Origin: an uncultured delta proteobacterium
Lineage (GTDB): Bacteria; Desulfobacterota; Syntrophobacteria; Syntrophobacterales; Syntrophobacteraceae
Direction: 5' to 3'
NCBI GenBank assembly: GCA_963808625.1
Contig: CAWEHK010000033.1
Span: 64,001-128,000, forward strand
DNA: 64,000 bases
Shown piece after piece: positions 1-15,262 of this stretch. The notes below the pieces were generated by a model. It was not told where the DNA came from. It searched no databases and was given only the letters and a program-made list of their open reading frames with translations. Position 1 is the stretch's first letter; each line of letters begins with the position of its first letter. The position numbers and the translations under genes were made by a program.

Positions 1-955
1 GAGGGTGGCTGCAAATACCGGGTGATTTTCGGTGGGTCATGGCGGTGACGTGGAAAACAGGATATTCTCCGACCAGCGAGTAATACCCGGTGTGATCTCC
101 GAATGGCCCCTCCAAACGCAGCTCAACAGGGTCCACATAACCTTCCAGAATGAACTCGGCTTCGGCGGGTACTTCCAGGTCAATGGTAAGACATTTCACC
201 ATAGGAACCGATTTTCTGCGGATAAAACCGGCGAGCATCATTTCATCGATGCCGCGAGGAAGCGGGGCTGTGGCCGCGTAGGTCGTCGCCGGGTCCGTTC
301 CAATCGCGACGGCTACCGGCATACGCTTACCCTCCTGACGATATTCCTGAAAGTAGTGAGAACCATCTTTATGGATGTGCCAATGCATGCCTGTGGTGCG
401 CCGGTCGAAAACTTGCAGCCGATACATGCCGACGTTCCGTCGCCGCGTTTCGAGGCTGCGAGTAATCACCAACGGCAGCGTAATGAACGGGCCGCCATCT
501 TGCGGCCAGCATTTCAGGACGGGCAGTTGCGAAAGGTCAACCTGCTCGCCGACAGCCACCACTTCCTGGCAAGGCGCTTTTCTCACCCTCTTTGGGCAGG
601 AAACGGAGCACTTCCAAGCCCAGGGGAAGCAAGCGCAGGGCGTCCTTTAAAGACTTGGGCGGCTCCATCTGAACGAAGCGGCGCACGCGGTCGGCCAAAG
701 CATCCAGATCGGGCACCCCAAGAGCCATGCAGATTCGTCGTTCACTTCCGAAAGCATTGGTCAGAACCGGAAATGGCGATTCGACCACGCGTTCGAACAG
801 CAAAGCCTTTCCACCCCCCGAGACTCTTGGAGGCCAAATCGGTGATTTGAGAAATTTCCAGGTTCTCGGGAGACCGGGGCCTTGATCCTCTGCAGCTCAC
901 CGGCCTTCTCCAATAAGGCGATAAATTCCTGAAGATTTCGATAACAATACGGCAT
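1..955 (-). CDS. ubiD: UbiD-family (menaquinone/futalosine pathway) decarboxylase; partial (runs off window), frameshifted
   Basis: N-terminus MPYCYRNLQEFIALLEKAGELQRI. Later VLTNAFGSERR, NVGMYRLQ, MHWHIHKDG and EGPFGDHTGYY (about 80-112), spread over different frames. Confidence 0.85.
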
Positions 956-1032
956 AAGTGATAAATGCCCCTCCTCTAAGTCCCTCTGGGAAACAGCTCT
1001 GAAGGCAACATGAATTCCAGAACAAGGCAAGG

Positions 1033-1887
1033 TCAAGTCATCCATGTGTCCAGGAGAACCGCCAAAAAAAGGAGCACGGACACAGCGCTGTTGATATGAA
1101 AGAAGGCAAAATTTACCTTATCCAACTGGTTTGGCTGGACCAGTTTGTGTTCGACGATGAGCAGAATGCAAATGAAGAGCAAAGCTCCGAGATAAACAGG
1201 GCCAAGATGAAAAACGAAAAAGACCAGAAACAGGAAAAATAAAGTGAGGCCATGCAGGACAGAGGAAATCTTCAAGGCCTGTTCAACGTCCCGGCAGGCC
1301 GGAAGCGAAAATAAACCTTCTTTGCGGTCGAACTCGATATCCTGACACGCGTAAAGGATATCGAACCCGGCAATATAGGTCATTAAAGCCAGGGATAGAG
1401 GCAAAATGCGCGCGTCCCATTCGCCCGTGCTGGCAATCCAGGCCCCTATCGGGGCAAGGCCAATGGCAAATCCAAGGACGAGATGGGAGAACGGGGTGAA
1501 ACGCTTCGTATAAGAGTAGAAAAAGAGCACCATGAGCACGGGGACCGAAAGGCCCAGACAAAGCCGCCCAAGCATACCGGCACTCAAAAAGAAGATAGAT
1601 GACGAAATCAAGACGAATACAAGTACGGACTTCTGGTCAATTTGACCCGCTGCAAGAGGGCGGGAAGAGGTCCGAGGGTTCCGGCGGTCGTATTCATGAT
1701 CCACATACCGATTGAATCCCATGGCAGCTGAACGTGCGGATGCCAAGGCAAGCAGGATCCACCACAAGACTGCGGACCCTATCGGACGCTGTCGATACGC
1801 CAGCAGCACGGCTGCCAAGGCAAAGGGAAGGGCAAAGACGGTGTGGCTGAATTTGATCAATCGACCGTAAATCAGCATGCGATTCAT
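1033..1887 (-). CDS. UbiA-family polyprenyltransferase (MqnP-like)
   Basis: IKFSHTVFALPFA, ARSAAMGFNRYVD..D..NPRT..RP, YSYTKRFT, GFDILYACQD; multiple TM segments. Confidence 0.9.
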   Translation of the reverse strand: MNRMLIYGRLIKFSHTVFALPFALAAVLLAYRQRPIGSAVLWWILLALASARSAAMGFNRYVDHEYDRRNPRTSSRPLAAGQIDQKSVLVFVLISSSIFFLSAGMLGRLCLGLSVPVLMVLFFYSYTKRFTPFSHLVLGFAIGLAPIGAWIASTGEWDARILPLSLALMTYIAGFDILYACQDIEFDRKEGLFSLPACRDVEQALKISSVLHGLTLFFLFLVFFVFHLGPVYLGALLFICILLIVEHKLVQPNQLDKVNFAFFHINSAVSVLLFLAVLLDTWMT

Positions 1888-2184
1888 CAACGCAACCAAA
1901 TTTGCCCCTTTCTCGGAAAATCTTGTCCTGAGCCTCTCTTCTAGCCTTCTCCTGGTCATTGTTGCGTTTTTGTATTAGCATAACTTCTACACCAAGAAAA
2001 GGTTTCCAAAGGTTATTCCCTGTGGCGAGAGTTATAATGATTAATCAATATCGTGAATTCGACCGAACCCGGTATCGGGTCGTCGTCGTTGAAACGGTAG
2101 CAATTATCGGCGTGTGGTCTCCGTTGACAGAATCTTAGCCCATCAGCCCCAAGCTGTTGGATTTGATGGAATAATTGTGGTGAA

Positions 2185-3612
2185 ATGGGAATGAGTGACA
2201 TTCGTAAAGGCATGGACGTTGATTTGGAGGTTGAAAAGCTCGCATTCGGAGGAAAGGCCCTGACGCGGCTGGATGGTCTGGTTGTTTTCATGGACCACGC
2301 GCTTCCAGGCCAACGCGTACGGGTCAGAATCACTAAAAAGAAGCGACAGTTTGCCGAAGGTTTTGTGCAGGAATGCCTTTCCCAGTCTCCTCATTATGTG
2401 GAACCTGTTTGCCCTCATTTTGGAGTGTGCGGAGGATGCAGTTGGCAGGATCTGCAGTATGAGGAGCAACTATTCTGGAAGCGACTGCACGTGCTCGAAT
2501 CCCTCCACCATCTTGCCGGTATCGACGAAGCAACCGTGCATCCCACTGTCGCTTCGCCCGGTACTCTTTGGTATCGGAACAAGATGGAGTTTAGCTTTTC
2601 CAATCGGTGTTGGGTCCAACGGTGGGATCCTGTTTCCGACAGGAATTCACGATCAGACCAATTGGCTCTGGGGCTCCACGTCCGAAAGTCCTTTGATGCG
2701 GTGCTGGATATCGAAAAGTGCATGTTACCGTCGCCACTGGCTGTGGAGATACTAAAAGAGGCACGGTGGTGGTCCCGGGAAAGTCGATTGCCCGCCTACA
2801 GCACGAGGAATCATCAAGGGTTCTGGCGCTTTTTGGTTATTCGTGAGGGAAAACTCACCAATCAGCTTCTGGTCCACCTTCTGACTTCGAGTCAGGGGGA
2901 CAATGGTGCGGTGGCTGAGCGTCTGGCGGGTCACCTCCTCACTCGTTTTCCGGAGATCACCAGCTTCGTCCATTCCCTAACCGACAGAAAGGCCCAGGTC
3001 GCTTCCGGTGACTTCAGCCGGTGTTTGAGCGGCCCCGGCTTTATTGAAGATCGACTCGGGGATTTGAAATTCAGGATTTCCCCTCATTCGTTCTTTCAGA
3101 CCAATACCCTCGCCGCCGAACAGCTTTACCGTGCCATCCTGGAACTCGGGGAATTCACCGGGAAAGAAACCGTTTGGGATCTCTATTGCGGCACGGGAAG
3201 CATTGCCCTCTTTATTGCCGCTCATGTACGGCAAGTGGTGGGGTTTGAAGTGAGCGAGCAAGCGGTAAAAGATGCTTACGACAACTGCATTTTGAATGGC
3301 GTTGAGAATTGCTCATTTGTGTCGGGAGATCTCAAGGATGTTATACGGGAAGGCCGCGGCTGCGGTGAATCAGGTCGCTCTCCGGACGTGGTGATAACGG
3401 ACCCTCCGCGCTCCGGAATGCATCCTCGAGTACTGCAGGCTCTTCTTGAGATGGCTCCCTCCTGCATCGTTATGGTTTCGTGCAATCCCGCTACTCTGGC
3501 GAGGGACCTGGTAGTGCTGCTGGAAAAATATCAGATCGAATCGGTGCAACCTTTTGACCTTTTTCCACACACTCCCCACATTGAATGTCTGGTAAAGCTG
3601 AATAGACGGTGA
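2185..3612 (+). CDS. rlmD: 23S rRNA (uracil-C5)-methyltransferase
   Basis: TRAM domain, CPHFGVCGGC Fe-S motif, FFQTN, DLYCGTG, DPPRSG, SCNPATLARD, DLFPHTPHIE. Confidence 0.93.
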   Translation: MGMSDIRKGMDVDLEVEKLAFGGKALTRLDGLVVFMDHALPGQRVRVRITKKKRQFAEGFVQECLSQSPHYVEPVCPHFGVCGGCSWQDLQYEEQLFWKRLHVLESLHHLAGIDEATVHPTVASPGTLWYRNKMEFSFSNRCWVQRWDPVSDRNSRSDQLALGLHVRKSFDAVLDIEKCMLPSPLAVEILKEARWWSRESRLPAYSTRNHQGFWRFLVIREGKLTNQLLVHLLTSSQGDNGAVAERLAGHLLTRFPEITSFVHSLTDRKAQVASGDFSRCLSGPGFIEDRLGDLKFRISPHSFFQTNTLAAEQLYRAILELGEFTGKETVWDLYCGTGSIALFIAAHVRQVVGFEVSEQAVKDAYDNCILNGVENCSFVSGDLKDVIREGRGCGESGRSPDVVITDPPRSGMHPRVLQALLEMAPSCIVMVSCNPATLARDLVVLLEKYQIESVQPFDLFPHTPHIECLVKLNRR

Positions 3613-3701
3613 TTGCCATAAAGCAATGCGACCCATACGTTATCGAACCCATGAGCAAGCCTTTCGGGAACGTTCAGGGTTCCCCTAATTAGGTTCAACC
3701 C

Positions 3702-5957
3702 ATGTTGCAGAACAAAGATAATCCGCGGCGGTTCTTCCTGAGGAGAATTCCGTTACTCGTCGTGCTCCTTATTCTGCTCTTGCTCGCCGGCTATTTCTTC
3801 TACCTGTATATCGAAGTGAAACAGCGATTTGAATCCCGTCGATGGAGCATTCCTTCCAGAGTTTTTTCCGCAGCCATACCGATCTACCCGGGACAGTCGC
3901 TTTCCATTTCTGAAATGAAGAAGATTCTGCAGGAACGGCGCTATAAAGAAGCCATCAAAGAACCGCTGCAAGCCGGAGAATATAAGTTGGGGCGTGACTG
4001 CATCACTGCCTATCTGCGGGAATTCCGTTTCCCGGGTCATGTTCTCCCCGCGCAGCGGGTTGAATTTACGTTTCAGCAAAGCAGTCTCGTGAAGATGATA
4101 AGCGGCCAGGTCGAGCTGCCCTTCCTGGAATTGGAGCCGCTTGAAATCGTCCGTCTGTTTGGACCCGAGCGGAAGAGTCGGCTGCTCATCAACATCAAGC
4201 AGGTTCCCGCCTATCTCATGGATGGGGTGCTGGCCATTGAGGATCATCGTTTCTACGAGCATCGCGGGGTCGATTGGTGGGGAACCCTGCGTGCTTTGTA
4301 CACGGATATTGTCGCGCGGCGGGTTGTCCAGGGAGGTTCTACCATCACCCAGCAACTTGTGAAGAATTACTTTTTGGAACCGGAACGGACTCTCAAACGA
4401 AAGATCCAGGAGGCTTCCATGGCAGTGGTTCTGGAAGCTCTTTATGACAAGGATGCTATCCTTGAGATGTATATGAACGAAATCTACATGGGTCAAAGAG
4501 GCAGTGTCGCTATTCACGGAATGGGTGAAGCGGCCATCAATTATTTCGGCAGAAACGTTGAAGACCTGACTCTGGCCGAATGTGCCACCCTTGCAGGAAT
4601 GATTCGTGCTCCTAACAGCTACTCGCCCGTGGCAAATCCGGAAGCATCGAGGGAGCGCCGCAATGTCGTTCTGAGGCGGATGCTTGATCTGGGAATGGTT
4701 TCCGCCATAGAGTACGAAAAGGCTCGCGGAGAACCCCGGATCGTGTCTGCCACGAAAAATCCGAGAGACGTCGCCCCCTACTATGTGGACTATGTGCGGC
4801 AGCAACTCCGTGTTCTTTATGATGAGAAAATTCTGGGGTCCGAGGGGTTGAGCATCCACACGGTACTCCATCCGGAAATGGCCGTGGCTGCAGATATCGC
4901 CTTGAGAGAAGAACTTCCCCTATTGGAGAAGGAATTATCCGAAAGTGCGGACACATCTTCTATCTCCGGGCCGCTTCAGGGGGTTATCATCGCGGTGCAA
5001 CCGAAAACCGGGGACGTGCTTGCTTTGATTGGAGGCAGAGACTATGCGGCAAGCAACTTTAATCGAGCCCTCTCTGCCCATAGGCAACCAGGCTCTGCCA
5101 TTCTGCCATTTGTTTATTTGACCGCTCTGGATCGTTTCACACCCGCCAGCTGGATCAAAGATGAGCCGGTGACCTACACGGCTAATGGAATCAGATGGTC
5201 TGCAACGAATTACGATGATCGGTATCGCGGCCCGGTTCTGTTTCGGGATGCCCTGGAACAGTCCCTGAATGCAGCCACGGTCAACCTCGCTGTGGCCGTG
5301 GGATTGGAGAAGATTATCACGATGATTCATAACCTGGGCATAGAATCGCCGATCCAACCGGTCCCCTCGTTGGCTCTGGGAGACTTCGAGGTAACGCCCC
5401 TTGAATTGGCGAAAGCATACGCTGCCTTGGACAATGACGGGCAGAAACCATTCCTTCTCAGTGTTAAGGAAGTGGTCACCGAGATGGGTGAGATCCAGGA
5501 AAGGCGCAGCGTTGAGATAGTTCCTGTTACGACTCCTGCTAGGGCCTTCCTCATCACTGACATCTTGGCGGGCGCCGCGCAAAGCAGAAACCTGGGAATT
5601 ATCAGGGGACTTGGAATCGATGTCCCATGCGCAGTCAAGAATGGGGTTTCCTCCGATTATCGAGATTCGTGGTTTGTCGGCTATACTACCGACCTCCTGG
5701 TAGTCGTATGGGTGGGATACGACGACGGGCGCCCTGTGCGCCTGAGTCTCTCTCAGGGAGCTGCGCGCATATGGGCAAGGTTTATTCACGAGGTCCGACC
5801 ATGGATTCATCCGCAGGAATTCCGGCCTCCCCCGGGAATCGCACAACGGCTGATCTGCTTGGAGTCGGGGAGGCTCGCAGCCACTCGCTGCCGGGAACAG
5901 CGCCTGGAGGTATTCCTCTCTGATGACGTTCCAAAGGAATATTGTACCCTCCACTGA
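3702..5957 (+). CDS. mrcB: Class A penicillin-binding protein, PBP1b-like (TM, UB2H, transglycosylase, degenerate transpeptidase)
   Basis: EDHRFYEH, QGGSTITQQLVKN, RKIQE, YMNEIYMG. Transpeptidase motifs are altered (SAIL, SLN, KNG). Confidence 0.85.
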   Translation: MLQNKDNPRRFFLRRIPLLVVLLILLLLAGYFFYLYIEVKQRFESRRWSIPSRVFSAAIPIYPGQSLSISEMKKILQERRYKEAIKEPLQAGEYKLGRDCITAYLREFRFPGHVLPAQRVEFTFQQSSLVKMISGQVELPFLELEPLEIVRLFGPERKSRLLINIKQVPAYLMDGVLAIEDHRFYEHRGVDWWGTLRALYTDIVARRVVQGGSTITQQLVKNYFLEPERTLKRKIQEASMAVVLEALYDKDAILEMYMNEIYMGQRGSVAIHGMGEAAINYFGRNVEDLTLAECATLAGMIRAPNSYSPVANPEASRERRNVVLRRMLDLGMVSAIEYEKARGEPRIVSATKNPRDVAPYYVDYVRQQLRVLYDEKILGSEGLSIHTVLHPEMAVAADIALREELPLLEKELSESADTSSISGPLQGVIIAVQPKTGDVLALIGGRDYAASNFNRALSAHRQPGSAILPFVYLTALDRFTPASWIKDEPVTYTANGIRWSATNYDDRYRGPVLFRDALEQSLNAATVNLAVAVGLEKIITMIHNLGIESPIQPVPSLALGDFEVTPLELAKAYAALDNDGQKPFLLSVKEVVTEMGEIQERRSVEIVPVTTPARAFLITDILAGAAQSRNLGIIRGLGIDVPCAVKNGVSSDYRDSWFVGYTTDLLVVVWVGYDDGRPVRLSLSQGAARIWARFIHEVRPWIHPQEFRPPPGIAQRLICLESGRLAATRCREQRLEVFLSDDVPKEYCTLH

Positions 5958-6105
5958 CGAGAGAATTCGCATCGGGTTCTTTTTGCAGATCCGTTCACAT
6001 ATCAGGCTTTTCATGCTATGAGTCTGACCCGGTCCGTTTGTTCTTCAGACTCAGCCAGATGATAGTATCGACAAACCATCGCCAAAATAGAGGAGGGTTC
6101 TTGAT

Positions 6106-6711
6106 ATGGTGATTTACCTGTGCAAAAGGAAGGTGTCGAGGCTGGCGCTGATTCTTTGCTTGCTGCTGGTTTCAGCCTGCGCTCCCAAAAAACCGGTCTA
6201 TATCCCCTCTGAATGGCAACCGCCTCCTCCCGTCCAGCCGTCGTCGCCCCTTCCGCCATCGCCGGCGCCGGCGCCCAAACAGACGCCCATTCTTAAACCT
6301 CCCCCGGTCATCAAAGAGAGCGATATTGCGGCGCCTGCAGAGGCGCCGGTAAAAGCGGTGGAAAAGAGCCCGGCCCAACCCCCCCCTCAGCGTCTTGCCT
6401 CAATGCATCTCGTGAATCAGGCAAAGACTTCTTTGACCCAGGGTAAACCCGACCCCGCCATTCCTTTGCTTGAAAAGGCCATCCAGATCGATGTTCACAA
6501 CGGTGAAGCCTTTTTCAACCTGGCGCGGGCATGGCGTATGAAAGGGTCTCGCCAGAAGGCGCTCGAATTCAGCAAAAAAGCGGAGATACTTTTTCAGGAC
6601 GATCCGGCAAAACTGAAGCAGGTATACTTGCTTGAAGCCGACCTTTACAAGGAATTGGGTGACTCTGCCAAAACGGACGCATACCGTCAAAAGGCAGCAA
6701 AACTCAAATGA
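6106..6711 (+). CDS. TPR lipoprotein, LpoP-like PBP1b activator
   Basis: Lipobox LVSAC, Pro-rich linker, C-terminal TPRs; directly downstream of PBP1b. Confidence 0.7.
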   Translation: MVIYLCKRKVSRLALILCLLLVSACAPKKPVYIPSEWQPPPPVQPSSPLPPSPAPAPKQTPILKPPPVIKESDIAAPAEAPVKAVEKSPAQPPPQRLASMHLVNQAKTSLTQGKPDPAIPLLEKAIQIDVHNGEAFFNLARAWRMKGSRQKALEFSKKAEILFQDDPAKLKQVYLLEADLYKELGDSAKTDAYRQKAAKLK

Positions 6712-6761
6712 GAAAGAGAAGGGTGAGGGTCTCATTGACTACACTAAGAAAAGGCTAGGGG

Positions 6762-7334
6762 ATGGACGGTGCGGATGAAAGGCAAAAAGATCCTTCCGTG
6801 AGGGTTCGCGGCTATCGGCCGTTCTTACTGAAGGAACAGGAGGAGAAGCTCCTGCATGATATTCGCGCTGTTGCCAAGTCGGTTCTCCTCGGAACCTTTC
6901 TTACGGCACTCTGTCAGGGCCTTGTAGGCGGCATCGGCTTGTCGCTTGTGGGTATTCCCGGCCTCTTCTGGGGAACGGTAATGGGCTTTTCCTCCCTCAT
7001 CCCCATTGTGGGCACTGCGCTGGTCTGGATACCCGCTACCGTCTACCTGCTTCTGTTGGGAAATTGGAAATCTGCCCTATTTTTGGCGCTCTGGTCCATT
7101 TTTCTTTCCGGATCCATCGACAATATCCTGCGCCCGTTTCTCATGCGAGGAGAAGGGAGGATGTCCCCTTTCTATGTTTTCCTGGCCATTATCGGTGGGG
7201 TCCAGTACTTTGGGCTCTCGGGAATCCTCTATGGACCGTTGATTTTGAGCTTCGCCATGATCATGCTTTACCTTTACGGTGTCGAATACCGGGGTGACCT
7301 GCTTTCGGAAACCAAGAACATCGATGCGGTTTGA
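6762..7334 (+). pseudogene. AI-2E family transporter, C-terminal half only
   Basis: QGLVGGIG, IPIVGTALVWIP, IDNILRP, GGVQYFGLSGILYGP. The N-terminal half is absent. Confidence 0.65.
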
Positions 7335-7347
7335 CATCCTTTAGCGC

Positions 7348-7869
7348 TCACACCTGCCACCAAGGTTTTCTTGGCTTTGTCTTGGTCGGTTCCCGCTCGT
7401 CCGCTGACCTCTGAAGCCGTTCAGCTTCTGTCTGTTGCGCCTTATCCTTCCTCATCTCGAGAGCCACTACTCTCTCCGTCAGTTGCTCAATATGGTCTTC
7501 CAGCCGTCGGATAGACTCCTCTCTAGCAAGCATGATTCCTTTGAACTCAAGAAAAAATTGGTTCTGCTTGCGAAGTTCACCCAACTCCAGGAGCATCTGT
7601 TCATAACGTTCCCTGCTCAGGGTCACTATGCCTCCAACCTGTCCCATCTCAGCCGCTTTCCCAAGTGTCCCAAAGAGACGTCCCTGTCCGAAAAGAGGGT
7701 CACTTCCCAGGGACTTGACTTCAGGAAGCAAAAGAAGTGTCCTTGTCCCTTCCTTGACTTTTGTCAAGCGACCTTTTGTGAGGTATCGATGGATGGACTT
7801 GGTAGAAACTCCCAGGATCTGGGCCGCGGTTTTGACGGTGATCTTTTGGTCTGTCATCTGTCCCTTCAT
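7348..7869 (-). CDS. HTH_17/MerR-like DNA-binding protein with coiled coil and KPWWQV tail
   Basis: TVKTAAQILGVSTKSIHRYL HTH, heptad-rich C-terminal half, GGAGG Shine-Dalgarno (SD) before the ATG at 7869. Confidence 0.7.
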   Translation of the reverse strand: MKGQMTDQKITVKTAAQILGVSTKSIHRYLTKGRLTKVKEGTRTLLLLPEVKSLGSDPLFGQGRLFGTLGKAAEMGQVGGIVTLSRERYEQMLLELGELRKQNQFFLEFKGIMLAREESIRRLEDHIEQLTERVVALEMRKDKAQQTEAERLQRSADEREPTKTKPRKPWWQV

Positions 7870-8030
7870 GATCAATCCCTCCTGCATGAGACATCTTATC
7901 ATAGACTTTTCCGAGTGTAAAAAACACAAAAAGGATTTAGAATCGTATCGAGAGTGCCCGAAAGCGCTCAAGTGAGCGCTAATATTGACCTGAGACCCAC
8001 TCGAGGCATGATGAGACGAGACGAACAACC

Positions 8031-9215
8031 GTGTATTTGACATCTTTCATCCACCGCGACGAACTATTCGATATTGCCGAGCGCTGGTTCTGCGGCCATT
8101 TAAGCCCCAACGACGGGCTGCGCCTGACACAAATCCTGATCAGTGACGGCTTTGTTTTAGGGCAAACCCTGGAGAATCTGGCGAAGAGCCTCATGAAGAG
8201 GGTCTATCCCGGGCTCATCAACGAAAAGCGCATCCACTTCAAAGGAGAGCTACGGGAAGCCATATGCCGCGGTGCCGGGGAGGTTACTGATCGAGAGCGT
8301 GAGCTTTTTTCCTTGTACCGGATGAACCCCGATTTTTATTATCGCGAAACGCCCATCGATGGGGTGATGTGCCTCGATGCTGAAGATCGGCTCACAGGCC
8401 TGTACCGCATAAAGAGGCCGCGGAGGATTGCTGAGAAGGCCAATCGCAAGATTGCCAACTGGATCTTCAGCGTGGTTCAGAGCAGGGCTCAGGAAATGGC
8501 AGCGGAACGAGCCAGGAAGTACGGTATTACTCTCGAATTGCTTCTCACCCCCGAATCGGAAATGGCTTGTGAGTTTGTCGAGGCAGAGAAGGCTATTTCG
8601 CAGGGGTTCGGCGCGGGAAGTGTCAAATTCGACCGCGAGGCTTTAACCATCCACGACGTTGGAGGAATCAAAATCGTTGCCAACGACGAGCAGTTGGTGG
8701 AAATCGAGGATGCCCTCCACCTTGATCCCAACATCCGTGTTGTGCAGGAAGAGAGTTTCTCAGGGTCCTTTCGCGCCAGAAGCCTTGTCCTGGAGTGTTC
8801 TTGGGACGCGGAACAAGCTTTTCGGAGGTACAGGGAATGCCGATGCTGGCAGAAGTATCTGAATCGGGGAATCTCTCAAAGGGATTTGATGAAAGGGTTG
8901 GAATGGCTGCTTCACGATCCCGGGACGACGATAAACGTGGAGTTGATCCTTTCGAACTTTCCGGATCTGGTTGAATCCGAACTTGGGAACAGCATTCATG
9001 AAGAGAGGATAATCGCTCAGAGGGACAGCAAGGTCTATCAGGGCTACATTCCGATGAATGTTGAATTCTTGATCGAGTATCTTTTCGCGGTTGGATTCAG
9101 CCCGCAGACGCACATCGACCATATCCCCATCAAGTTGTGGGGAAGATACCTGCCCGACACCTTGATTTCCTATATGCGCCAGTTGTACCTTTTACCGGTA
9201 CAGGATCTCTTCTAA
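8031..9215 (+). CDS. Hypothetical protein with RelA/SpoT-like nucleotidyltransferase motifs
   Basis: 394-aa ORF with RIKRPRRIAEK, IHDVGGIKIV, SGSFRARSL, NVELIL, SELGNSIH in RSH synthetase order. Confidence 0.65.
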   Translation: MYLTSFIHRDELFDIAERWFCGHLSPNDGLRLTQILISDGFVLGQTLENLAKSLMKRVYPGLINEKRIHFKGELREAICRGAGEVTDRERELFSLYRMNPDFYYRETPIDGVMCLDAEDRLTGLYRIKRPRRIAEKANRKIANWIFSVVQSRAQEMAAERARKYGITLELLLTPESEMACEFVEAEKAISQGFGAGSVKFDREALTIHDVGGIKIVANDEQLVEIEDALHLDPNIRVVQEESFSGSFRARSLVLECSWDAEQAFRRYRECRCWQKYLNRGISQRDLMKGLEWLLHDPGTTINVELILSNFPDLVESELGNSIHEERIIAQRDSKVYQGYIPMNVEFLIEYLFAVGFSPQTHIDHIPIKLWGRYLPDTLISYMRQLYLLPVQDLF

Positions 9216-9387
9216 TGAAATTCCGGCACCTTTCGAGATTTTACCCGGACCGAGTTTGTGAGGTTCAAACAAAAAGCCATCTTCACTGTTCCGAGAGAGT
9301 TCGCCGGCATTTCCGTGTCATGGCCTTAACCCTGGCGGAGCCAGAGCGCTGAAGTCGGTATCGGTATTATCTTCCTTCTCTGAAGTT

Positions 9388-10383
9388 TCACCAGCGCAGA
9401 AGTGCTGACGCCCAGGTGAAGCCGGAACCGAAGGCTATGAGGAGCAAATGATCGCCTCTTTCCAGTTTTCCGGCCTGATAGGCTTCGTCTAACAGGAGAG
9501 GAATAGATGCTGCGGTCGTATTACCATATTTATGAATGTTATTCAGGAACTTTTCATGTGGAAATCCAAGGCGTTCCGCGACAAGCTGGTTGATTCTTTG
9601 ATTTGCCTGATGGGGGATAACGTATTTGATATCTTCCGGTTGCATGCTGCATTGTTTAAGCGCATGGGTGACCAGTTCGGCCATACGGATCACTGCGTGT
9701 TTGAAAACGGTTTTCCCGTCCATTTGAGGCCAAATCTCTCCGGTGTCGATGCTCTCATGCGTGAGATAGGGTTTTCGGGAAATATTCCAGACGTCCATAT
9801 GGAGCGCCTTGGCAAACCTGCCATCGGCATGAAGTTCCGTGTAGAGGATGCCGCGATCTTCCTCCGAGGAGGAAGCGAGCACCACGGCTCCGGCTCCGTC
9901 ACCAAAAAGCACGCTGACATCTCGGCCCTCATCGGAGAAATTCAGGGCGTTCGAATGAAGTTCGGAGCCGACCACCAGCACATGGCGGTACATGCCAATG
10001 CGAATGAAAGCATCCCCCACCGCCAGACCATAGATAAAGCCCGTGCACTGGTTGCGCAGATCGAGGCAGCCAATATAGGGAACGCCGAGCTTGGCCTGAA
10101 GAAAGCATGCGGTGCCGGGGAAATGGTGATCCGGGCTCACGGTGGCAAAGATAATAAAGTCTAGATCCGAGGGTTCAAGATGGGCATCCGCCAGGGCATT
10201 GTTGGCCGCTTCGAGAGCAAGGTCCGAACAGTACACTCCCTCTCCTGCAAAACGCCTTTCCTTGATACCACTCCGGGTGCGAATCCACTCATCACTCGTC
10301 GTCATCAGTCGGGAGAGATCGTCGTTGGTTACCACCCGGGGTGGCACATAGCTTCCAATTCCTGCAATCACGCTGCGCCTCAT
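9388..10383 (-). CDS. fabH: 3-oxoacyl-ACP synthase III
   Basis: TSDEWIRTRSGI, catalytic C in NQCTGF, LFGDGAGA, PHQANQRI, GNTTAASIP; SD GAGGAGG. Confidence 0.92.
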   Translation of the reverse strand: MRRSVIAGIGSYVPPRVVTNDDLSRLMTTSDEWIRTRSGIKERRFAGEGVYCSDLALEAANNALADAHLEPSDLDFIIFATVSPDHHFPGTACFLQAKLGVPYIGCLDLRNQCTGFIYGLAVGDAFIRIGMYRHVLVVGSELHSNALNFSDEGRDVSVLFGDGAGAVVLASSSEEDRGILYTELHADGRFAKALHMDVWNISRKPYLTHESIDTGEIWPQMDGKTVFKHAVIRMAELVTHALKQCSMQPEDIKYVIPHQANQRINQLVAERLGFPHEKFLNNIHKYGNTTAASIPLLLDEAYQAGKLERGDHLLLIAFGSGFTWASALLRW

Positions 10384-10628
10384 GTACTTCCTCCTCAAGC
10401 AAATTTGGGGGGCTGCCGAAATCGCTTTCATAGGGGTTGAACCTAACGTACTTCTCTCTATACCGGGCCGGCGTAAAAGTCACTCGTAATCCAATCGCGG
10501 AGTTTTGGGGTTCTTACGAAAAGGTTCCCTGGGCAGGCGTGATAATATTCCTGCATCGATTCTGCGGTGTGCTAAAATAGATAGGATTTTTTCAATTCCC
10601 AAGTTGAGTGATTCCAACGGCAACCCCT

Positions 10629-10657
10629 CGTCATTCCGTTGAAAGCAGGAATGACGA
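10629..10657. repeat. Palindromic REP-like element
   Basis: CGTCATTCC-N11-GGAATGACG inverted repeat in an intergenic region. Confidence 0.55.
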
Positions 10658-10838
10658 CTCGGGATCGTCACGATATGAATCGCTCAATTCAAGTACCTAC
10701 TCGTTGAGTCCGGTGCGATGGGCTCCGTGTCTGTCTGTGAGAACAAGAAACCACGACGGATTGAGTACGACTCTCTCCATGCAGCCGCATAGAATTGATG
10801 ACGCATAAACAAAAATCCGATGGGAGCGATCCTTGGTT

Positions 10839-11345
10839 ATGGCAGACAACTCCGAAAAGAAATTTCTTCCCAAACCTGTAGGAACCCGCTGCTTTGGTTG
10901 CGGCGACCGCAATCCTTTGGGTCTCAACATGTCCTTCTACCGTCTTGGAACGACCTTGCGTTCGGACATTACTCTGAGCGAGCACCACATGGGTTGGGAG
11001 AACCTGGCCCACGGGGGAATAATCTCCACCGTTCTTGATGAAATCATGGGCTGGACGGTCATCGCCTTTAGACGTGTTTTCTTTGTCACCCGTAGCATTG
11101 AAGTCCACTATTTGCGGCCGGTGCCGCTGAATTCACCCCTTACCGCCGTTGGCGAAATTGAAGCCGATCATGCCCCGAAGGGCTGTTCAACCAGAGGTTA
11201 CCTGATCAACGCCGCAGGGGTGAAACTGGCGGAAGGGCGCGCTCAGATGGTTTATTTGTCGGAGAAACGGTTGCCGCTGCTGCCCGAACAGTACCGAAAG
11301 GACATGCTCAAACTCTTTGAGCGGATCCGGGAGTTGCTGGATTGA
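10839..11345 (+). CDS. PaaI/hotdog-fold thioesterase
   Basis: CFGCG..NPLGL, HGGIISTVLDE. Confidence 0.85.
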   Translation: MADNSEKKFLPKPVGTRCFGCGDRNPLGLNMSFYRLGTTLRSDITLSEHHMGWENLAHGGIISTVLDEIMGWTVIAFRRVFFVTRSIEVHYLRPVPLNSPLTAVGEIEADHAPKGCSTRGYLINAAGVKLAEGRAQMVYLSEKRLPLLPEQYRKDMLKLFERIRELLD

Positions 11346-11590
11346 TCCCAGAGAGCTTGCCGCGGCCGAGAGCACCCAACGTCCGGAAAAAATGTGCTGC
11401 GAGCGCTGACGATCACTTCGGCGACGTTAAGGACCTGCGACTTCTGCGTGAAGGGGGCATTGCAGTGTTCGTATGGACGGTGAACGAAGAGGCAGCCATG
11501 CGCTTCCTGATCGAACAAAGGGTGAGCGGAATTTTCACGGACTTCCCTCAGCGGTTGAGATCGGTCCTCGACTTCCGGCGCGACTCATGA
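11342..11590 (+). pseudogene. Glycerophosphodiester phosphodiesterase, C-terminal fragment
   Basis: VFVWTVNE...VSGIFTDFP is the GDPD C-terminus; the rest of the gene is missing. Confidence 0.65.
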
Positions 11591-12387
11591 CGGCAACAAT
11601 CCAAATTGCGATGCTCTTCGCTCTGCCCCAGGAATATGGCTGTTTCAAGCGGCTTACGGCACCATGGCTTCGGGCGCGACCTGAACCTTTCCCGAGCTTT
11701 GTTCGCAGTACCCCTCACCAAGAGCTCATCATGGTGGAAAGTGGAATGGGCTCCAACCGGATGATCGAGGCCCTGAAATGGCTTCTTGGGTGGACCCGCC
11801 CCGACCTCGTGATTGTGGGAGGGTTTGCCGGCAGCCTCATGCCGGACTTGAAGGTGGGGGATGTTTGTCTGGGAGGGGTCTTTAGCAGCTTTGACCGGCA
11901 ATGCGGTTCTCTGGGCCAGCCGACGATCCGGTTGAAATTCTCGGAAAGACTCTTTCGTTTCTGTAAAGAGCAACGGATTCGAGAGACCCGGATGGTCACC
12001 GTTGTGCGGCCGGAAGCAAAACGACTGGTCAGACAAACATTGGGAGATGCCGCTTCGATCATGGATATGGAAAGCTATTCCGTGGCCCGGTTCTGCTATG
12101 AGAACCACATCCCGTTCCTCTCTTTTCGGGCGGTCAGTGATGGCTTCCGCGATGAGATCGATTTCGACCTGCAAGCGATCAGCGATGCTCGGGGACGTGT
12201 AAAAATTCCGCTCGTGCTCTCATCAATAGTTGAAAATCCGGCCCTCGTCAGGTCCTACTTGCATTCATGGAAGCGTTCCAGCAGGGCATCAAGGAGTCTG
12301 GGACGGGCTCTTACCGCTCTTCTCGATCTGTCACCGGTGGAGTTGCGATCCTTGGTTGAGGAGAACTGCTTATATGTGTCAGTCTAA
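11587..12387 (+). CDS. hpnG: Purine phosphorylase/MTA nucleosidase-like protein, hopanoid-associated (HpnG-like)
   Basis: SGMG, GFAGSL..LKVGDV, DMES, RAVSD; next to hpnH and hpnA. Confidence 0.7.
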   Translation: MTATIQIAMLFALPQEYGCFKRLTAPWLRARPEPFPSFVRSTPHQELIMVESGMGSNRMIEALKWLLGWTRPDLVIVGGFAGSLMPDLKVGDVCLGGVFSSFDRQCGSLGQPTIRLKFSERLFRFCKEQRIRETRMVTVVRPEAKRLVRQTLGDAASIMDMESYSVARFCYENHIPFLSFRAVSDGFRDEIDFDLQAISDARGRVKIPLVLSSIVENPALVRSYLHSWKRSSRASRSLGRALTALLDLSPVELRSLVEENCLYVSV

Positions 12388-13248
12388 GGGAGGGCGGCAG
12401 GCCCCCGACAGGGGAAAATCCCGGCAGTGTTGAGCAATGTGGGACGGGGTGAGGTGAGAATGCTTATAGAAGGTGAAAAGCAAGACCAGCAGACTCGGGA
12501 AAAAGAGGATCGTGCAGCCCACAATCCCCAGAAAATGTTCCTCGATCCAGAATGTAACCGCAAGGTTGAAAACAAGGATACAGAGGTAGAGCAGGGGACC
12601 CGACATCCCTATCCAAGGGATCTCGGCAAGCACGGATGGTTTGCCTGGTTCGAGAGCGGGGACGGTATCCAACGCCTGGAGCACTCCGATCATCACTAAG
12701 CCCACCAACAGCCAGCCACCAAAGTTGCTCATCGGTATGCCGAAATAGAGCCCGTTTTGTCGGTAGCCATAGATCTGACCGAGAAACCAGCGGTCGCCTC
12801 TGAGTGCAACAGGGTCGATGATGATATCCAGCAGCACAAATAGAAAAGCCCCCAGAACAAGGGTCTGAAGGGATCGTCTGAGATGATGGGTTTCGAGAAT
12901 GATAACCGTTTTTTTGCTGAAGAGCACCGGGCTGAGGATAAAGAGCGCCATTGCATAACTGCAATAAGAAAGAAAAACATAAGAAAGCGAGTCCATGAAG
13001 GGCACGCCCAAAACCCACAGCTCCCGGTCTGCCGTGCCGGGAAGGTAAAAGTAGTCTCCATAAGGGAATCCCCAATGAATCGAAGAGAATTCGGAAAGCC
13101 AGGCAAGGCTGTAGCCGACGGGAAGAAAGAGCAGGGTTTTTCGCCATCCGAGATGGGATGCTGAGGCAGCAAGGTACATGGTTAGAAACGCAAAAACATA
13201 AGGGCGAAGAGCAATCGTTCCAAGGAGCAGTCGGCAGAAATCAAACAT
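12379..13248 (-). CDS. CruF/DUF422-family membrane protein ('carotenoid biosynthesis protein')
   Basis: SEFSSIHWGFPYGDY, GVPF, LDIIIDPVA, YFGIPMSNFGGW. Confidence 0.75.
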   Translation of the reverse strand: MFDFCRLLLGTIALRPYVFAFLTMYLAASASHLGWRKTLLFLPVGYSLAWLSEFSSIHWGFPYGDYFYLPGTADRELWVLGVPFMDSLSYVFLSYCSYAMALFILSPVLFSKKTVIILETHHLRRSLQTLVLGAFLFVLLDIIIDPVALRGDRWFLGQIYGYRQNGLYFGIPMSNFGGWLLVGLVMIGVLQALDTVPALEPGKPSVLAEIPWIGMSGPLLYLCILVFNLAVTFWIEEHFLGIVGCTILFFPSLLVLLFTFYKHSHLTPSHIAQHCRDFPLSGACRPPLD

Positions 13249-14236
13249 AAAGATTCCACTTCACCATCCGCAACAAGTCCTTGCCATTCATCTCGAGGAC
13301 CACGGTGGGTTCAAACCCGCAATGGACCATGCACTGGGCGCAGCGCGGGTCTTTGCCGGATACGTAATGGTCCCAGTCCGTTTGTTCCATGAGTTCCCGA
13401 AAGGTTGGGTAATGCGTGTCGGTGATGAGATAGCAGGGAGATTTCCATCCCTGGGTGTTTCTGGTCGGGTTTCCCCAGGGGGTGCATTGCAGCTTGCGTC
13501 CTCCTGCCACGAAATCGAGATAGAGGGGATTGCTGATCAGGGGAAAGCGCCGCCCCCATCGGCGTATTTCCCTGAACTTCTGCATGATTTCCTGGCGGGT
13601 CAGAAACACCTCGCCGGCTACGTTCTCATAGCTGAATCCCGGAGCCACCAAAATGCCGTCCACACCGGCAGCGGTCAACTGCTTAAAGAGCACCTCAAGG
13701 TCGGCAAGATCCGTTTCCCGATAAACCGTGGTATTAGTGCTCACCCTGAAGCCTTTGCTCTTGGCCGCCAGCAATCCGGCAAAAGCTTTTCTAAATCCGC
13801 CGGGGCGCCCGATGATGAGGTCATGGACGGGCTCGGAGCCGTCAAAATGGAGGTTCCAGGTAAAACGGGAGCAGGGACGGAAGTGCTCTAGCGATTCTTC
13901 GAGCAACAGGCCGTTGGTGCAAAAATAGATGTGCTTTCCGCGTGCAAGCACCGATTCTACGAGTTCATTCACGCGTGAGTAAAGCAGCGGCTCGCCGCCG
14001 GTAATGGTCACCACGGGTGCATCCGCCTCATCGACTGCCTCGAGGCAAGATTCGATGCTCATTTCATCGAGAATCGTGTCACGATACTCGCGAATGCGGC
14101 CGCAGCCGGCACAGGTCAAATTACAGCGATGGGTCGGTTCAAGCATGAGCACGAGAGGGAAAAGCTTTTCCTTGTGCATTCTTTTTCGAACCAAATACCG
14201 GGTCATGGAAGCATAGAGACTGATGGGAAAGCGCAT
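13241..14236 (-). CDS. hpnH: Adenosyl-hopene transferase, radical SAM
   Basis: FPLVLMLEP, CNLTCAGC, GGEPL, CTPWGNPT, PCYL, DPRCAQCMVHCGFE. Confidence 0.92.
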   Translation of the reverse strand: MRFPISLYASMTRYLVRKRMHKEKLFPLVLMLEPTHRCNLTCAGCGRIREYRDTILDEMSIESCLEAVDEADAPVVTITGGEPLLYSRVNELVESVLARGKHIYFCTNGLLLEESLEHFRPCSRFTWNLHFDGSEPVHDLIIGRPGGFRKAFAGLLAAKSKGFRVSTNTTVYRETDLADLEVLFKQLTAAGVDGILVAPGFSYENVAGEVFLTRQEIMQKFREIRRWGRRFPLISNPLYLDFVAGGRKLQCTPWGNPTRNTQGWKSPCYLITDTHYPTFRELMEQTDWDHYVSGKDPRCAQCMVHCGFEPTVVLEMNGKDLLRMVKWNLYV

Positions 14237-14251
14237 TCAAACCTCAATTCA

Positions 14252-15262
14252 CTATTTTCGGGTCACGTAGCCGCGATTGCGGAACCACGAGACGGCTTCG
14301 GCCAGGGCGGTTTCCACAGGGGTTTGGGGAAGACCCAATTCGCTTATGGCTTTGCCCGCATCAAAAAACATGAACCGCTTCGCCATCTTAACCCCTTCGT
14401 AAGGGATAAGCGGCTCTCTGCCGGTGATTTTCGACGTCGCCTGAAAAATGGCGCCTAGAAACAAGATGGGATAATAGGGCAGGCGATAGCGCGGGGCTGG
14501 AATTCCCGAGACCTTTTCCAGAAGCCGAAAAATCTCCGCAAGGGTCAAGTTTTGATTCCCCAGAATATACTTTTCCCCCACCCGTCCGTATTCCAGAGCC
14601 AGCAAATGACCTTCTGCGACATCGGATACGTGGATCAAATTCAAGCCGGTGTCCAAAAAAGCGGGCATACGGCGATTCAAAAAGTCTACGATGATTTTAC
14701 CGGTCGGCGTCGGCTTGTGGTCGCCGGGGCCTACCGGCGTGCTGGGATGGACCATAACCACCGGCAATCCCTGATCAAGGAAACCCTCCGTTGAGCGTTC
14801 CGCCAGGAATTTTGACTTCTTGTAATGCCCTACCATCTCCTCCAGGCAAACGGGAGTCGCTTCGTCGGACGGTCTTCCGCCGGGTTTCAAGCCAAGAGCA
14901 CCCACACTGCTCGTGTAAACGACCCGCTCGACGCGGTTTGCGAGCGCCGCCTGCATCACGTTCACGGTCCCGGTGACATTGGTTTCGTAGATCTCCTCGG
15001 GATTCTTTGCCCATAGACGATAATCGGCGGCAACATGAAAGACGACATCACAACCGGCCATTGCCGACCGGATTTGCTCAAAACTCCGAATGTCCCCTGA
15101 ATGCCAATCGATTTCGGCCCATTCGACAAAGGGCGCAGGCGATTGGGGGCGCCTCAGAGCGCGAACTCTCCAACCCCGCTGCACCAAATGAATTGCCACA
15201 TGGCCTCCAATAAAGCCGGTGGCGCCGGTAATAAAGGCAGTTGGCATCTTGATTACTCTCAA
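14252..15262 (-). CDS. hpnA: Hopanoid-associated NAD-dependent epimerase/dehydratase
   Basis: TGATGFIG, HVAADYRLW, YKKSK, PTPTGKII. Confidence 0.88.
   Translation of the reverse strand: MRVIKMPTAFITGATGFIGGHVAIHLVQRGWRVRALRRPQSPAPFVEWAEIDWHSGDIRSFEQIRSAMAGCDVVFHVAADYRLWAKNPEEIYETNVTGTVNVMQAALANRVERVVYTSSVGALGLKPGGRPSDEATPVCLEEMVGHYKKSKFLAERSTEGFLDQGLPVVMVHPSTPVGPGDHKPTPTGKIIVDFLNRRMPAFLDTGLNLIHVSDVAEGHLLALEYGRVGEKYILGNQNLTLAEIFRLLEKVSGIPAPRYRLPYYPILFLGAIFQATSKITGREPLIPYEGVKMAKRFMFFDAGKAISELGLPQTPVETALAEAVSWFRNRGYVTRK

Follow-up and report, generated by a model that had tools for sequence, protein, structure and literature searches.

The window analysed here, a stretch of 64,000 nucleotides, contains at positions 8031..9215 (+ strand, as for all parts of the gene given below) a reading frame predicted from its letters alone to encode an unannotated protein with divergent RelA/SpoT (RSH) motifs, which may make a non-canonical alarmone or modify another substrate. 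The question raised by this locus is whether such a gene is real, whether its product has the fold of the RSH synthetases and, if so, which donor and acceptor its altered active site would serve.

The gene, its family and its surroundings

The gene has a GTG start and encodes a protein of 394 aa; relatives open with MYLTSFIHR at the same position. The reading frame and five motifs (between residues 126 and 323) were recovered in the order given by the original prediction, and the protein is indeed unannotated, as Pfam and NCBIfam searches returned no meaningful match. At E ≤ 0.001, 692 relatives were found among 4,053 candidates, nearly all of them approximately 395 aa in length. Of the best 120 of the 692 (58-100% identity), nearly all have 394-395 residues, and those that carry a name are annotated as hypothetical. 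When 50%-identity representatives were searched exhaustively, 227 matches were obtained. Two sets of rows underlie the conservation counts in this text: 120 close relatives, and 45 diverse members (alignment A5, consisting of 44 near-full-length representatives and the window protein, with a mean identity of 28%). The dN/dS ratio of the window gene is 0.05-0.11 against three close relatives, and the median over 519 other family pairs is 0.13. 8031..9215 is a real gene, and its family evolves under purifying selection. PF04607 was matched by none of the 120 close relatives, none of the 45 diverse members and not by the window protein, and PDB sequence searches with the single sequence or with a close-relative profile returned no match. 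As predicted, there is no HD or other hydrolase domain on the same chain (approximately 395 aa, without a Pfam domain), and 6,757 candidates with lengths of 813-2,320 aa included no longer or fused forms, which is weak evidence that none exist. One member (G384:C1 4215-5384; L223 and L225-L228) lies in five frame-shifted pieces and is either a pseudogene or the product of assembly errors.

Carriers of the family belong to the Syntrophobacteraceae, Syntrophales, Syntrophorhabdus, Desulfarculaceae, Desulfobacteraceae and Thermodesulfovibrionales, with one distant member in a Myxococcota MAG. Two overlapping samples from the phylum of the window, which include its own genome, contain the family in 14/301 and 21/401 genomes (approximately 5%), nearly always as a single copy. 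When 201 genomes were sampled from the phylum of a Thermodesulfovibrionales genome, it was found only in the chosen centre genome. Three weak matches in the Nitrospirota sample (E-values: 8e-5 to 6e-4) were rejected as members on their translations; judging by motifs, two would be hybrid histidine kinases and the third an AddB-like protein. No relatives were found in viral contigs, in 50,697 phage records or in 72,556 plasmids, a BFVD fold search returned nothing at E ≤ 0.001, and PADLOC gave no match for the window protein and single stray matches in 2/29 members. A long-Rel-type HD match is present in 18/19 carrier genomes tested, and 12 of these 19 have no HD_4 protein besides long Rel.

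With a divergent HTH gene on one side and a convergent fabH on the other, the window gene is likely monocistronic. No conserved partner gene, small genes included, was identified in 81 loci (80 genome loci and the window) or, in a second pass, in 179 loci. Neighbours vary with lineage: the largest same-strand adjacent cluster, fumarate hydratase, is found at 13 loci, and a Pfam scan of 48 of the 118 adjacent ORFs of at least 100 aa identified assorted housekeeping genes. ORF clusters 1-3 were discarded as antisense shadows of the family gene. Local gene order is common to close relatives, as expected for vertical inheritance.

Several features of the surrounding DNA were also recorded. The divergent gene (7348-8043, - strand) is HTH_17/excisionase-like, with a coiled coil and a C-terminal KPWWQV; in L001, L002, L004, L005, L008, L010 and the window, it is the gene immediately upstream of the family member. 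Its true start is probably near position 7870, as its relatives are mostly 171-199 aa. An AI-2E family transporter ORF (6762-7334, + strand) spans only profile positions 177-323 of 327, and because relative L008 has a 369-aa ORF in that place, breakage or misassembly of the window copy is possible. A hopanoid-type set at 11473-15262 (HpnG-like phosphorylase, CruF-like membrane protein, radical SAM protein with DUF3463 and NAD-dependent epimerase) is linked to the family gene in the closest relatives only. A DsrC-like gene 3' of the family gene in five loci and an HD-domain gene adjoining it in one locus (positions recorded: L075 7226-7636 and L200 1140-1745) both look lineage-specific. The contig (G000 contig C33) contains an inverted repeat of approximately 35 kb (36,066-79,248, which includes window positions 1-15,250, and 200,874-146,722), with gene order kept and 67-80% nucleotide identity. 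The inverted block holds a second family copy (L082, 75% aa identity, also with Phe247), and the fabH and HTH genes there look truncated. A chimeric assembly in which two related genomes were joined is a likelier origin of this arrangement than duplication.

Predicted fold, inserts and dimer

An AlphaFold2 model of the window protein, based on 120 sequences, has a pLDDT of 90.0 and a pTM of 0.87. The Pol-beta-like nucleotidyltransferase fold of RSH enzymes, for which an AlphaFold and Foldseek comparison had been proposed, was recovered in this model with RelP and RelQ as the top matches (Z up to 10.0). In Foldseek, all 10 matches at E ≤ 0.001 (E-values: 4e-5 to 7e-4) are small alarmone synthetase (SAS)-type chains, these being RelP chains and a streptococcal GTP pyrophosphokinase. 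Following rigid alignment (VIA), the best match was RelQ 5ded (Z 10.0, rmsd 3.4, 142 residues, model residues 33-327); other SAS reached Z 8-9 and ranks 1-22 were all RSH, with CapRel at Z 7.5 and long Rel/RelA/SpoT synthetase domains at 5.5-6.6. Over both structural searches, the values are 7.3-7.5 for CapRel, 5.5-7.2 for the long enzymes and 5.8 for Tas1. All 10 chains with Z ≥ 5 in a Foldseek-independent search of 48,161 solved chains are RSH synthetase domains. By structure, PolX enzymes were listed below RSH, at Z 5.1 or less. A split active site, suggested by a Foldseek rmsd of approximately 19 Å, was discarded because rigid alignment gives 3.2-4.4 Å over residues ~30-335.

Sequence comparisons were mixed. 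With the A5 profile, the top match among PDB sequences was B. subtilis RelP 6fgk (E-value: 4.1e-4), in an alignment that pairs the D-x-x-G motif and the G-loop Tyr. Comparison of the family with 29 Rel/SAS domains by hhalign was not significant (E about 0.1), and column-shuffled controls scored as well for the whole protein or any of 7 sub-ranges. A loose RSH motif chain, which was composed post hoc with both families already seen, matches 40/45 family rows, 24/29 Rel/SAS rows and 1/22,500 shuffles; among 2,551 long reading frames of the window's own genome, it matches three, the long Rel and the two family-gene copies. In the best Pfam-named Atlas clusters (scores 0.90 and 0.89), PF04607 is found in 15% of members. 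Unnamed ESM Atlas clusters with similar features have lengths of 349 aa (Myxococcota, 210 members), 394 aa (Acidobacteriota, 55 members) and 470 aa (Myxococcota, 79 members); two of these three partly match PF04607 and are possible bridges from the family of the window gene to canonical RSH.

Given the model, the family almost certainly belongs to the RSH synthetase fold. The kinship to RSH is remote but supported by structure, one profile match and motif order, and distances and spacing suggest that the family had a Rel-type ancestor. These proteins form a conserved family of anaerobes with a predicted RSH synthetase fold that is not recognised by Pfam or NCBIfam, and literature searches listed no description of it; the RSH datasets of PMC7229694 (30 SAS subfamilies) could include members.

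Like RelQ and RelP, its best structural matches (5ded, 5dec, 6ewz and 6fgk; Z 9-10 over approximately 140-150 residues, with 15-20% identity), the window protein is a stand-alone synthetase domain without HD, is predicted to oligomerise and keeps the same order of R-x-K, K, R, D-x-x-G, G-loop aromatic, catalytic Glu and His. In contrast to them, it is double their size, carries three inserts and ends in a C-terminal tail, and its predicted interface is built from parts that are absent in RelP/RelQ. It shares with the long Rel/RelA/SpoT synthetase domain an E-x-G-x-x-x-H motif, but lacks the HD, TGS and ACT domains, and carriers keep their own Rel. CapRel can be aligned over 169-170 residues, while the toxSAS FaRel2 is a weak structural match (Z 4.5). 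Matches to Apk1/Tas1, Apk2 and SaEAS have Z-scores of 5.8-6.6.

The N-terminus, which had been described as a novel domain, is new only in part. Residues 9-58 (8055..8204) form two helices that superpose on the pre-β1 helices of CapRel, long Rel and RelP/RelQ (the superposition starts at model residue ~30 for RelQ/RelP, at their first helix, and at ~9-14 for CapRel and long Rel); as these are ordinary synthetase helices, the new part is restricted to residues ~59-120. This region, insert 1 (8205..8390), is made up of a strand, three helices and a strand and contains the invariant residues K71 and P108. Insert 2 (residues 140-205, 8448..8645) is a helical hairpin between Syn1 and Syn2 that is shortened in some distant members. 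It corresponds to the single helical insert of approximately 60 aa that had been predicted: K136 and D209 are 73 residues apart, compared with 12-16 in Rel/SAS. It is, however, one of three, as there is also a helical insert 3 (residues 258-299, 8802..8927) with a conserved R279-G280. Together with the C-terminal tail (residues 335-394), the three inserts are the family-specific parts of the protein. The inserts are not basic, with 10 K/R and 13 D/E in insert 1 and 8 and 10, respectively, in insert 2.

The RelP/RelQ type is a homotetramer; for the window protein, folding covered two copies and favours a dimer. When these two copies were co-folded with ATP and Mg, the dimer score was 0.82, compared with 0.00 for the best control. 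This mark was reached by 20/30 solved one-chain pairs and 1/23 single chains, counts that hold only roughly because our own alignment was used and ligands were included. At least 94% of contacts were common to the dimer runs, with a pLDDT of at least 84. In the predicted dimer, a C-terminal motif at residues 366-380 (PIKLWGRYLPD, 9126..9170) packs against the partner's insert 1, Syn1 and H323 helix. The tightest predicted contacts are between residues 101-108 and 370-380 of the other chain; residues 99-112 of insert 1 make up half of the predicted interface, which also takes in 127, 129-131, 324, 327 and 328, beside the presumed ATP site. Conservation of the interface is modestly above that of the rest (0.47 vs. 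0.44) and rises to 0.51 without residues 388-394 (287/10,000 random sets). The window protein is thus predicted to form a homodimer, which would explain two of the family-specific motifs.

Presumed donor and acceptor sides of the active site

The five motifs are found at residues 126-140 (RIKRPRRIAEKANRK), 207-216 (IHDVGGIKIV), 244-254 (SGSFRARSLVL), 301-307 (INVELIL) and 316-323 (SELGNSIH). Twelve motif residues (R126, K128, R132, K136, R139, D209, K214, E304, E317, G319, H323 and E324) are invariant in 120/120 close relatives and are kept in 42-45 of the 45 diverse members. Their equivalences to RSH residues are drawn from order, spacing and, for D209, one HMM alignment to RelP. In RelP (PMC5794853), R78 and R112 stack on the adenine of ATP, K80, K88, R91 and S84 lie on its phosphates, H190 on its ribose, and D107 and E174 on Mg; for FaRel2, PMC11782079 gives the set R64, K66, S70, K74, R77, D90, G93, R95, E145 and Q147.

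The Syn1-like motif R126-x-K128-xxx-R132-xxx-K136-xx-R139 (8406..8447) would correspond to RelP R78, K80, S84, K88 and R91, with Ser changed to Arg. The Syn2-like motif D209-xx-G212-x-K214 (8655..8672) would correspond to RelP D107 and R112, with a likely Mg-binding Asp and with the adenine-stacking Arg changed to Lys. FaRel2 R64, K66, S70, K74 and R77, and D90, G93 and R95, are spaced as their counterparts in these two motifs. In the Syn4-like motif E304-x-I306-x-S308 (8940..8954), the likely catalytic Glu (RelP E174) is kept, while the Gln and Arg are lost. The last motif, S316-E317-x-G319-xxx-H323-E324 (8976..9002), resembles the AExGIAAH of long Rel in its Glu-to-His spacing, which is 19 residues in 165/165 family rows and in long Rel rows, as opposed to 16 in RelQ/RelP and in the SAS of the same genome.

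The Asp and Glu for which conservation across homologs had been proposed as a check are both kept in A5: D209, a likely Mg-binding acid, in 45/45 members, and E304, the other, in 43/45, with Asp in the remaining 2. The basic residues presumed to contact the donor phosphates are similarly conserved (R126 in 43/45, K128 in 44/45, K136 in 44/45 and R139 in 42/45), as are G212 (45/45) and H323, the counterpart of the ribose-binding His (44/45). The ATP-phosphate and metal residues are therefore near-invariant despite a mean identity of 28%. The replacements are conserved as well: R132 for Ser in 44/45, K214 for Arg in 42/45, I306 for Gln in 39/45 and, at position 308, Ser, Thr, Ala or Cys for Arg in 41/45. 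The predicted changes in substrate contacts at the first three positions are thus genuine family traits, but by order and spacing they appear to map to the donor site for ATP (RelP Ser84 and Arg112, FaRel2 Gln147) and not to the acceptor site. Position 308 is likewise on the donor side. As three of the changed donor residues are described for RelP/FaRel2 as strictly conserved or as binding adenine, the use of ATP is itself uncertain.

Two other RSH genes of the same genome were noted. The second long RSH (L085; G000:C30 382-2667, - strand) has an HD match and degenerate synthetase motifs, with Glu replaced by Lys and without AExGxAAH, and is similar to the second copies of RshD type that have been reported in Syntrophobacter. 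A conventional SAS of 341 aa with a C-terminal extension is encoded by L084 (G000:C15 1363-2388, + strand).

In RSH enzymes, a G-loop lysine that is missing in the family binds the 5' phosphates of the acceptor. The G-loop/Syn3 region of the window protein (residues 241-251, 8751..8783) is 6 residues shorter than that of RSH (an Asp-to-Tyr distance of 38 vs. 44), and where RSH has SxH, the window protein has AxS and the wider family AxN. Canonical YxSxH is found in 0/120 close relatives and 0/45 diverse members; YxAxN is found in 22/45 diverse members and YxAxS in 85/120 of the window's subfamily. At the end of Syn3, AxN is the commonest form (23/45), GxN is seen in 2/45 and AxS in 94/120 of the window's subfamily. 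The RelP/RelQ-type Syn1 Ser, Syn2 Arg, YxSxH and ExQxR are thus absent, and the family has Arg, Lys, Y/FxAxN/S and ExIxS/T in their place, while all 23-24 long Rel rows from the same phylum retain the YxSxH and ExQxR residues that the family has lost.

Two of the changes originally noted in the window protein, Y to F and H to S, turned out to be traits of its lineage and not of the family. Position 247 is Tyr in 110/120 close relatives and 39/45 diverse members, and position 251 is Asn in 28-29/45, His in 9/45 and Ser in only 3/45. The F247 codon (8769-8771) is covered without difference by a public contig, possibly from the source study. Phe is found at this position in 13/175 genes from several distant groups (dN/dS 0.05-0.23 where measurable), and their distances suggest separate origins.

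Proposed activity and its alternatives

We favour, at somewhat short of an even chance, a model-based reading in which the window protein would be a stand-alone, regulated, dimeric pyrophosphokinase that transfers pyrophosphate from ATP to an acceptor that is likely not GTP or GDP. Mg-ATP would be bound via D209, E304, R126, K128, R132, K136, R139, K214 and H323, the acceptor base would stack on Y/F247, and pyrophosphate would move from ATP to the 3'-OH of the acceptor. Because SxH is replaced by AxN/AxS and the G-loop is six residues shorter, the acceptor would resemble adenosine and have a 5' phosphate tail that is short or missing; candidates are AMP/ADP (giving pApp/ppApp) and the 3'-terminal adenosine of RNA. 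The C-terminal tail of the partner subunit and the three inserts would give the site its shape and control access to it; this would account for carriage of the gene without an antitoxin.

This reading is supported by Foldseek, rigid alignment, the Foldseek-independent search and the RelP profile match, all of which point to RSH, and by a kept catalytic set that matches the roles given for RelP and FaRel2. The long Rel-type HD match in nearly all carriers tested fits an add-on role. The change on the acceptor side has a parallel in the Apk2 (p)ppApp synthetases, which have GxN in place of the guanosine-recognising SxH of RSH (PMC12226406). On the other hand, the hhalign comparison was not significant, PF04607 is unmatched in the family, conservation at the interface is only a little above that of the other residues, and the family lacks the Syn2 RYT and Syn4 YH motifs of Apk2, as well as the delivery domain and adjoining immunity or hydrolase gene of the Apk enzymes. 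The window protein also has Phe at the position of Y128F, a catalytically impaired FaRel2 variant (PMC11782079). Motifs are poor predictors of specificity: syn-motif swaps in Apk2 left the product unchanged (PMC12226406), and the tRNA-using toxSAS have no clear signature. The evidence does not separate a free adenosine nucleotide from an RNA end as acceptor. The 12 carriers without an additional HD_4 protein are awkward for a producer of free (p)ppApp, while inserts that are not basic are awkward for an RNA binder. The earlier suggestion of a non-canonical product or substrate is a reasonable hypothesis.

A conventional accessory (p)ppGpp synthetase of the RelP/RelQ kind, with drifted motifs and regulatory inserts, is unlikely but would account for RelQ/RelP being better structural matches than CapRel and Tas1 and for the His at position 251 in 9/45 diverse members; long Rel is there to remove (p)ppGpp, and a lone chromosomal gene without an antitoxin is also the pattern of non-toxic SAS (PMC7229694). 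Such an enzyme is difficult to reconcile with the complete absence of YxSxH from both row sets, the shortened G-loop and the lost Gln and Arg of ExQxR, residues that long Rel of the same phylum keeps. The replacement of several residues required in RelP/FaRel2, and the tolerance in 13/175 genes of a Tyr-to-Phe change that impairs FaRel2, could instead indicate a pseudo-synthetase, a sensor or scaffold to which ATP or an alarmone binds but which transfers no pyrophosphate, and a degenerate synthetase does exist in the second long RSH of this genome. We consider this distinctly unlikely, as the metal acids and donor-phosphate basic residues are near-invariant in so divergent a family, and because R132, K214 and I306 are themselves conserved, the site appears to be remodelled rather than decayed.

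It is a little less probable again that the RSH fold has been turned to other chemistry, such as nucleotidyl transfer (e.g. AMPylation of protein or RNA) or use of a pyrophosphate donor other than ATP. The changed residues are those that touch the α-phosphate (RelP Ser84) and adenine (RelP Arg112, FaRel2 Gln147), K71 is an additional invariant lysine, and the weaker structural neighbours include PolX/TdT, GrpB, MenT1 and TENT5B (Z 3.9-5.1); RSH domains nevertheless outranked every other nucleotidyltransferase in the two structural searches, and the basic helix specific to RSH is completely retained. A role as the toxSAS of a toxin-antitoxin or phage-defence system, possibly with self-inhibition as in CapRel, is very improbable. 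The patchy distribution of the family and the alignment with CapRel, which is the longest (169-170 residues, N-terminal helix included), would suit such a role, and a fused inhibitor would make a neighbouring gene unnecessary. However, the loci have housekeeping genes nearby and no conserved neighbour, close relatives have gene order in common as for vertical inheritance, relatives are absent from the viral, phage and plasmid collections, and the window protein has no PADLOC match. The tRNA pyrophosphokinase toxSAS differ further from the family, which has no antitoxin gene, mobile context or evident basic insert surface.

Returning to the dimeric pyrophosphokinase, a bolder proposal, which we hold only tentatively and think rather unlikely in full, is that the family is a non-toxic, chromosomal, dimeric branch of RSH with a regulatory role that pyrophosphorylates an acceptor new for these enzymes. 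It might make an adenosine-based signal (pApp/ppApp) or reversibly cap the 3' end of RNA or an adenosine-containing cofactor, with a switch in the form of a dimer in which the tail of one subunit gates the ATP site of the other.

In the literature consulted, the RSH enzymes known not to make (p)ppGpp, namely the (p)ppApp synthetases and tRNA pyrophosphokinases, are toxins or are exported. As the family keeps the catalytic core, has conserved changes in both pockets and occurs as a lone gene without an antitoxin, it offers a direct test of non-guanosine RSH chemistry in ordinary regulation, and also of what fixes donor and acceptor specificity in the RSH fold. A single soluble protein of 394 aa with clear catalytic-residue controls is simple to test. 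Because the family is invisible to PF04607, HMM-based surveys of RSH would miss its members. If the proposal is true, energy-limited syntrophic and sulfate-reducing bacteria would have a second, Rel-independent route of nucleotide signalling.
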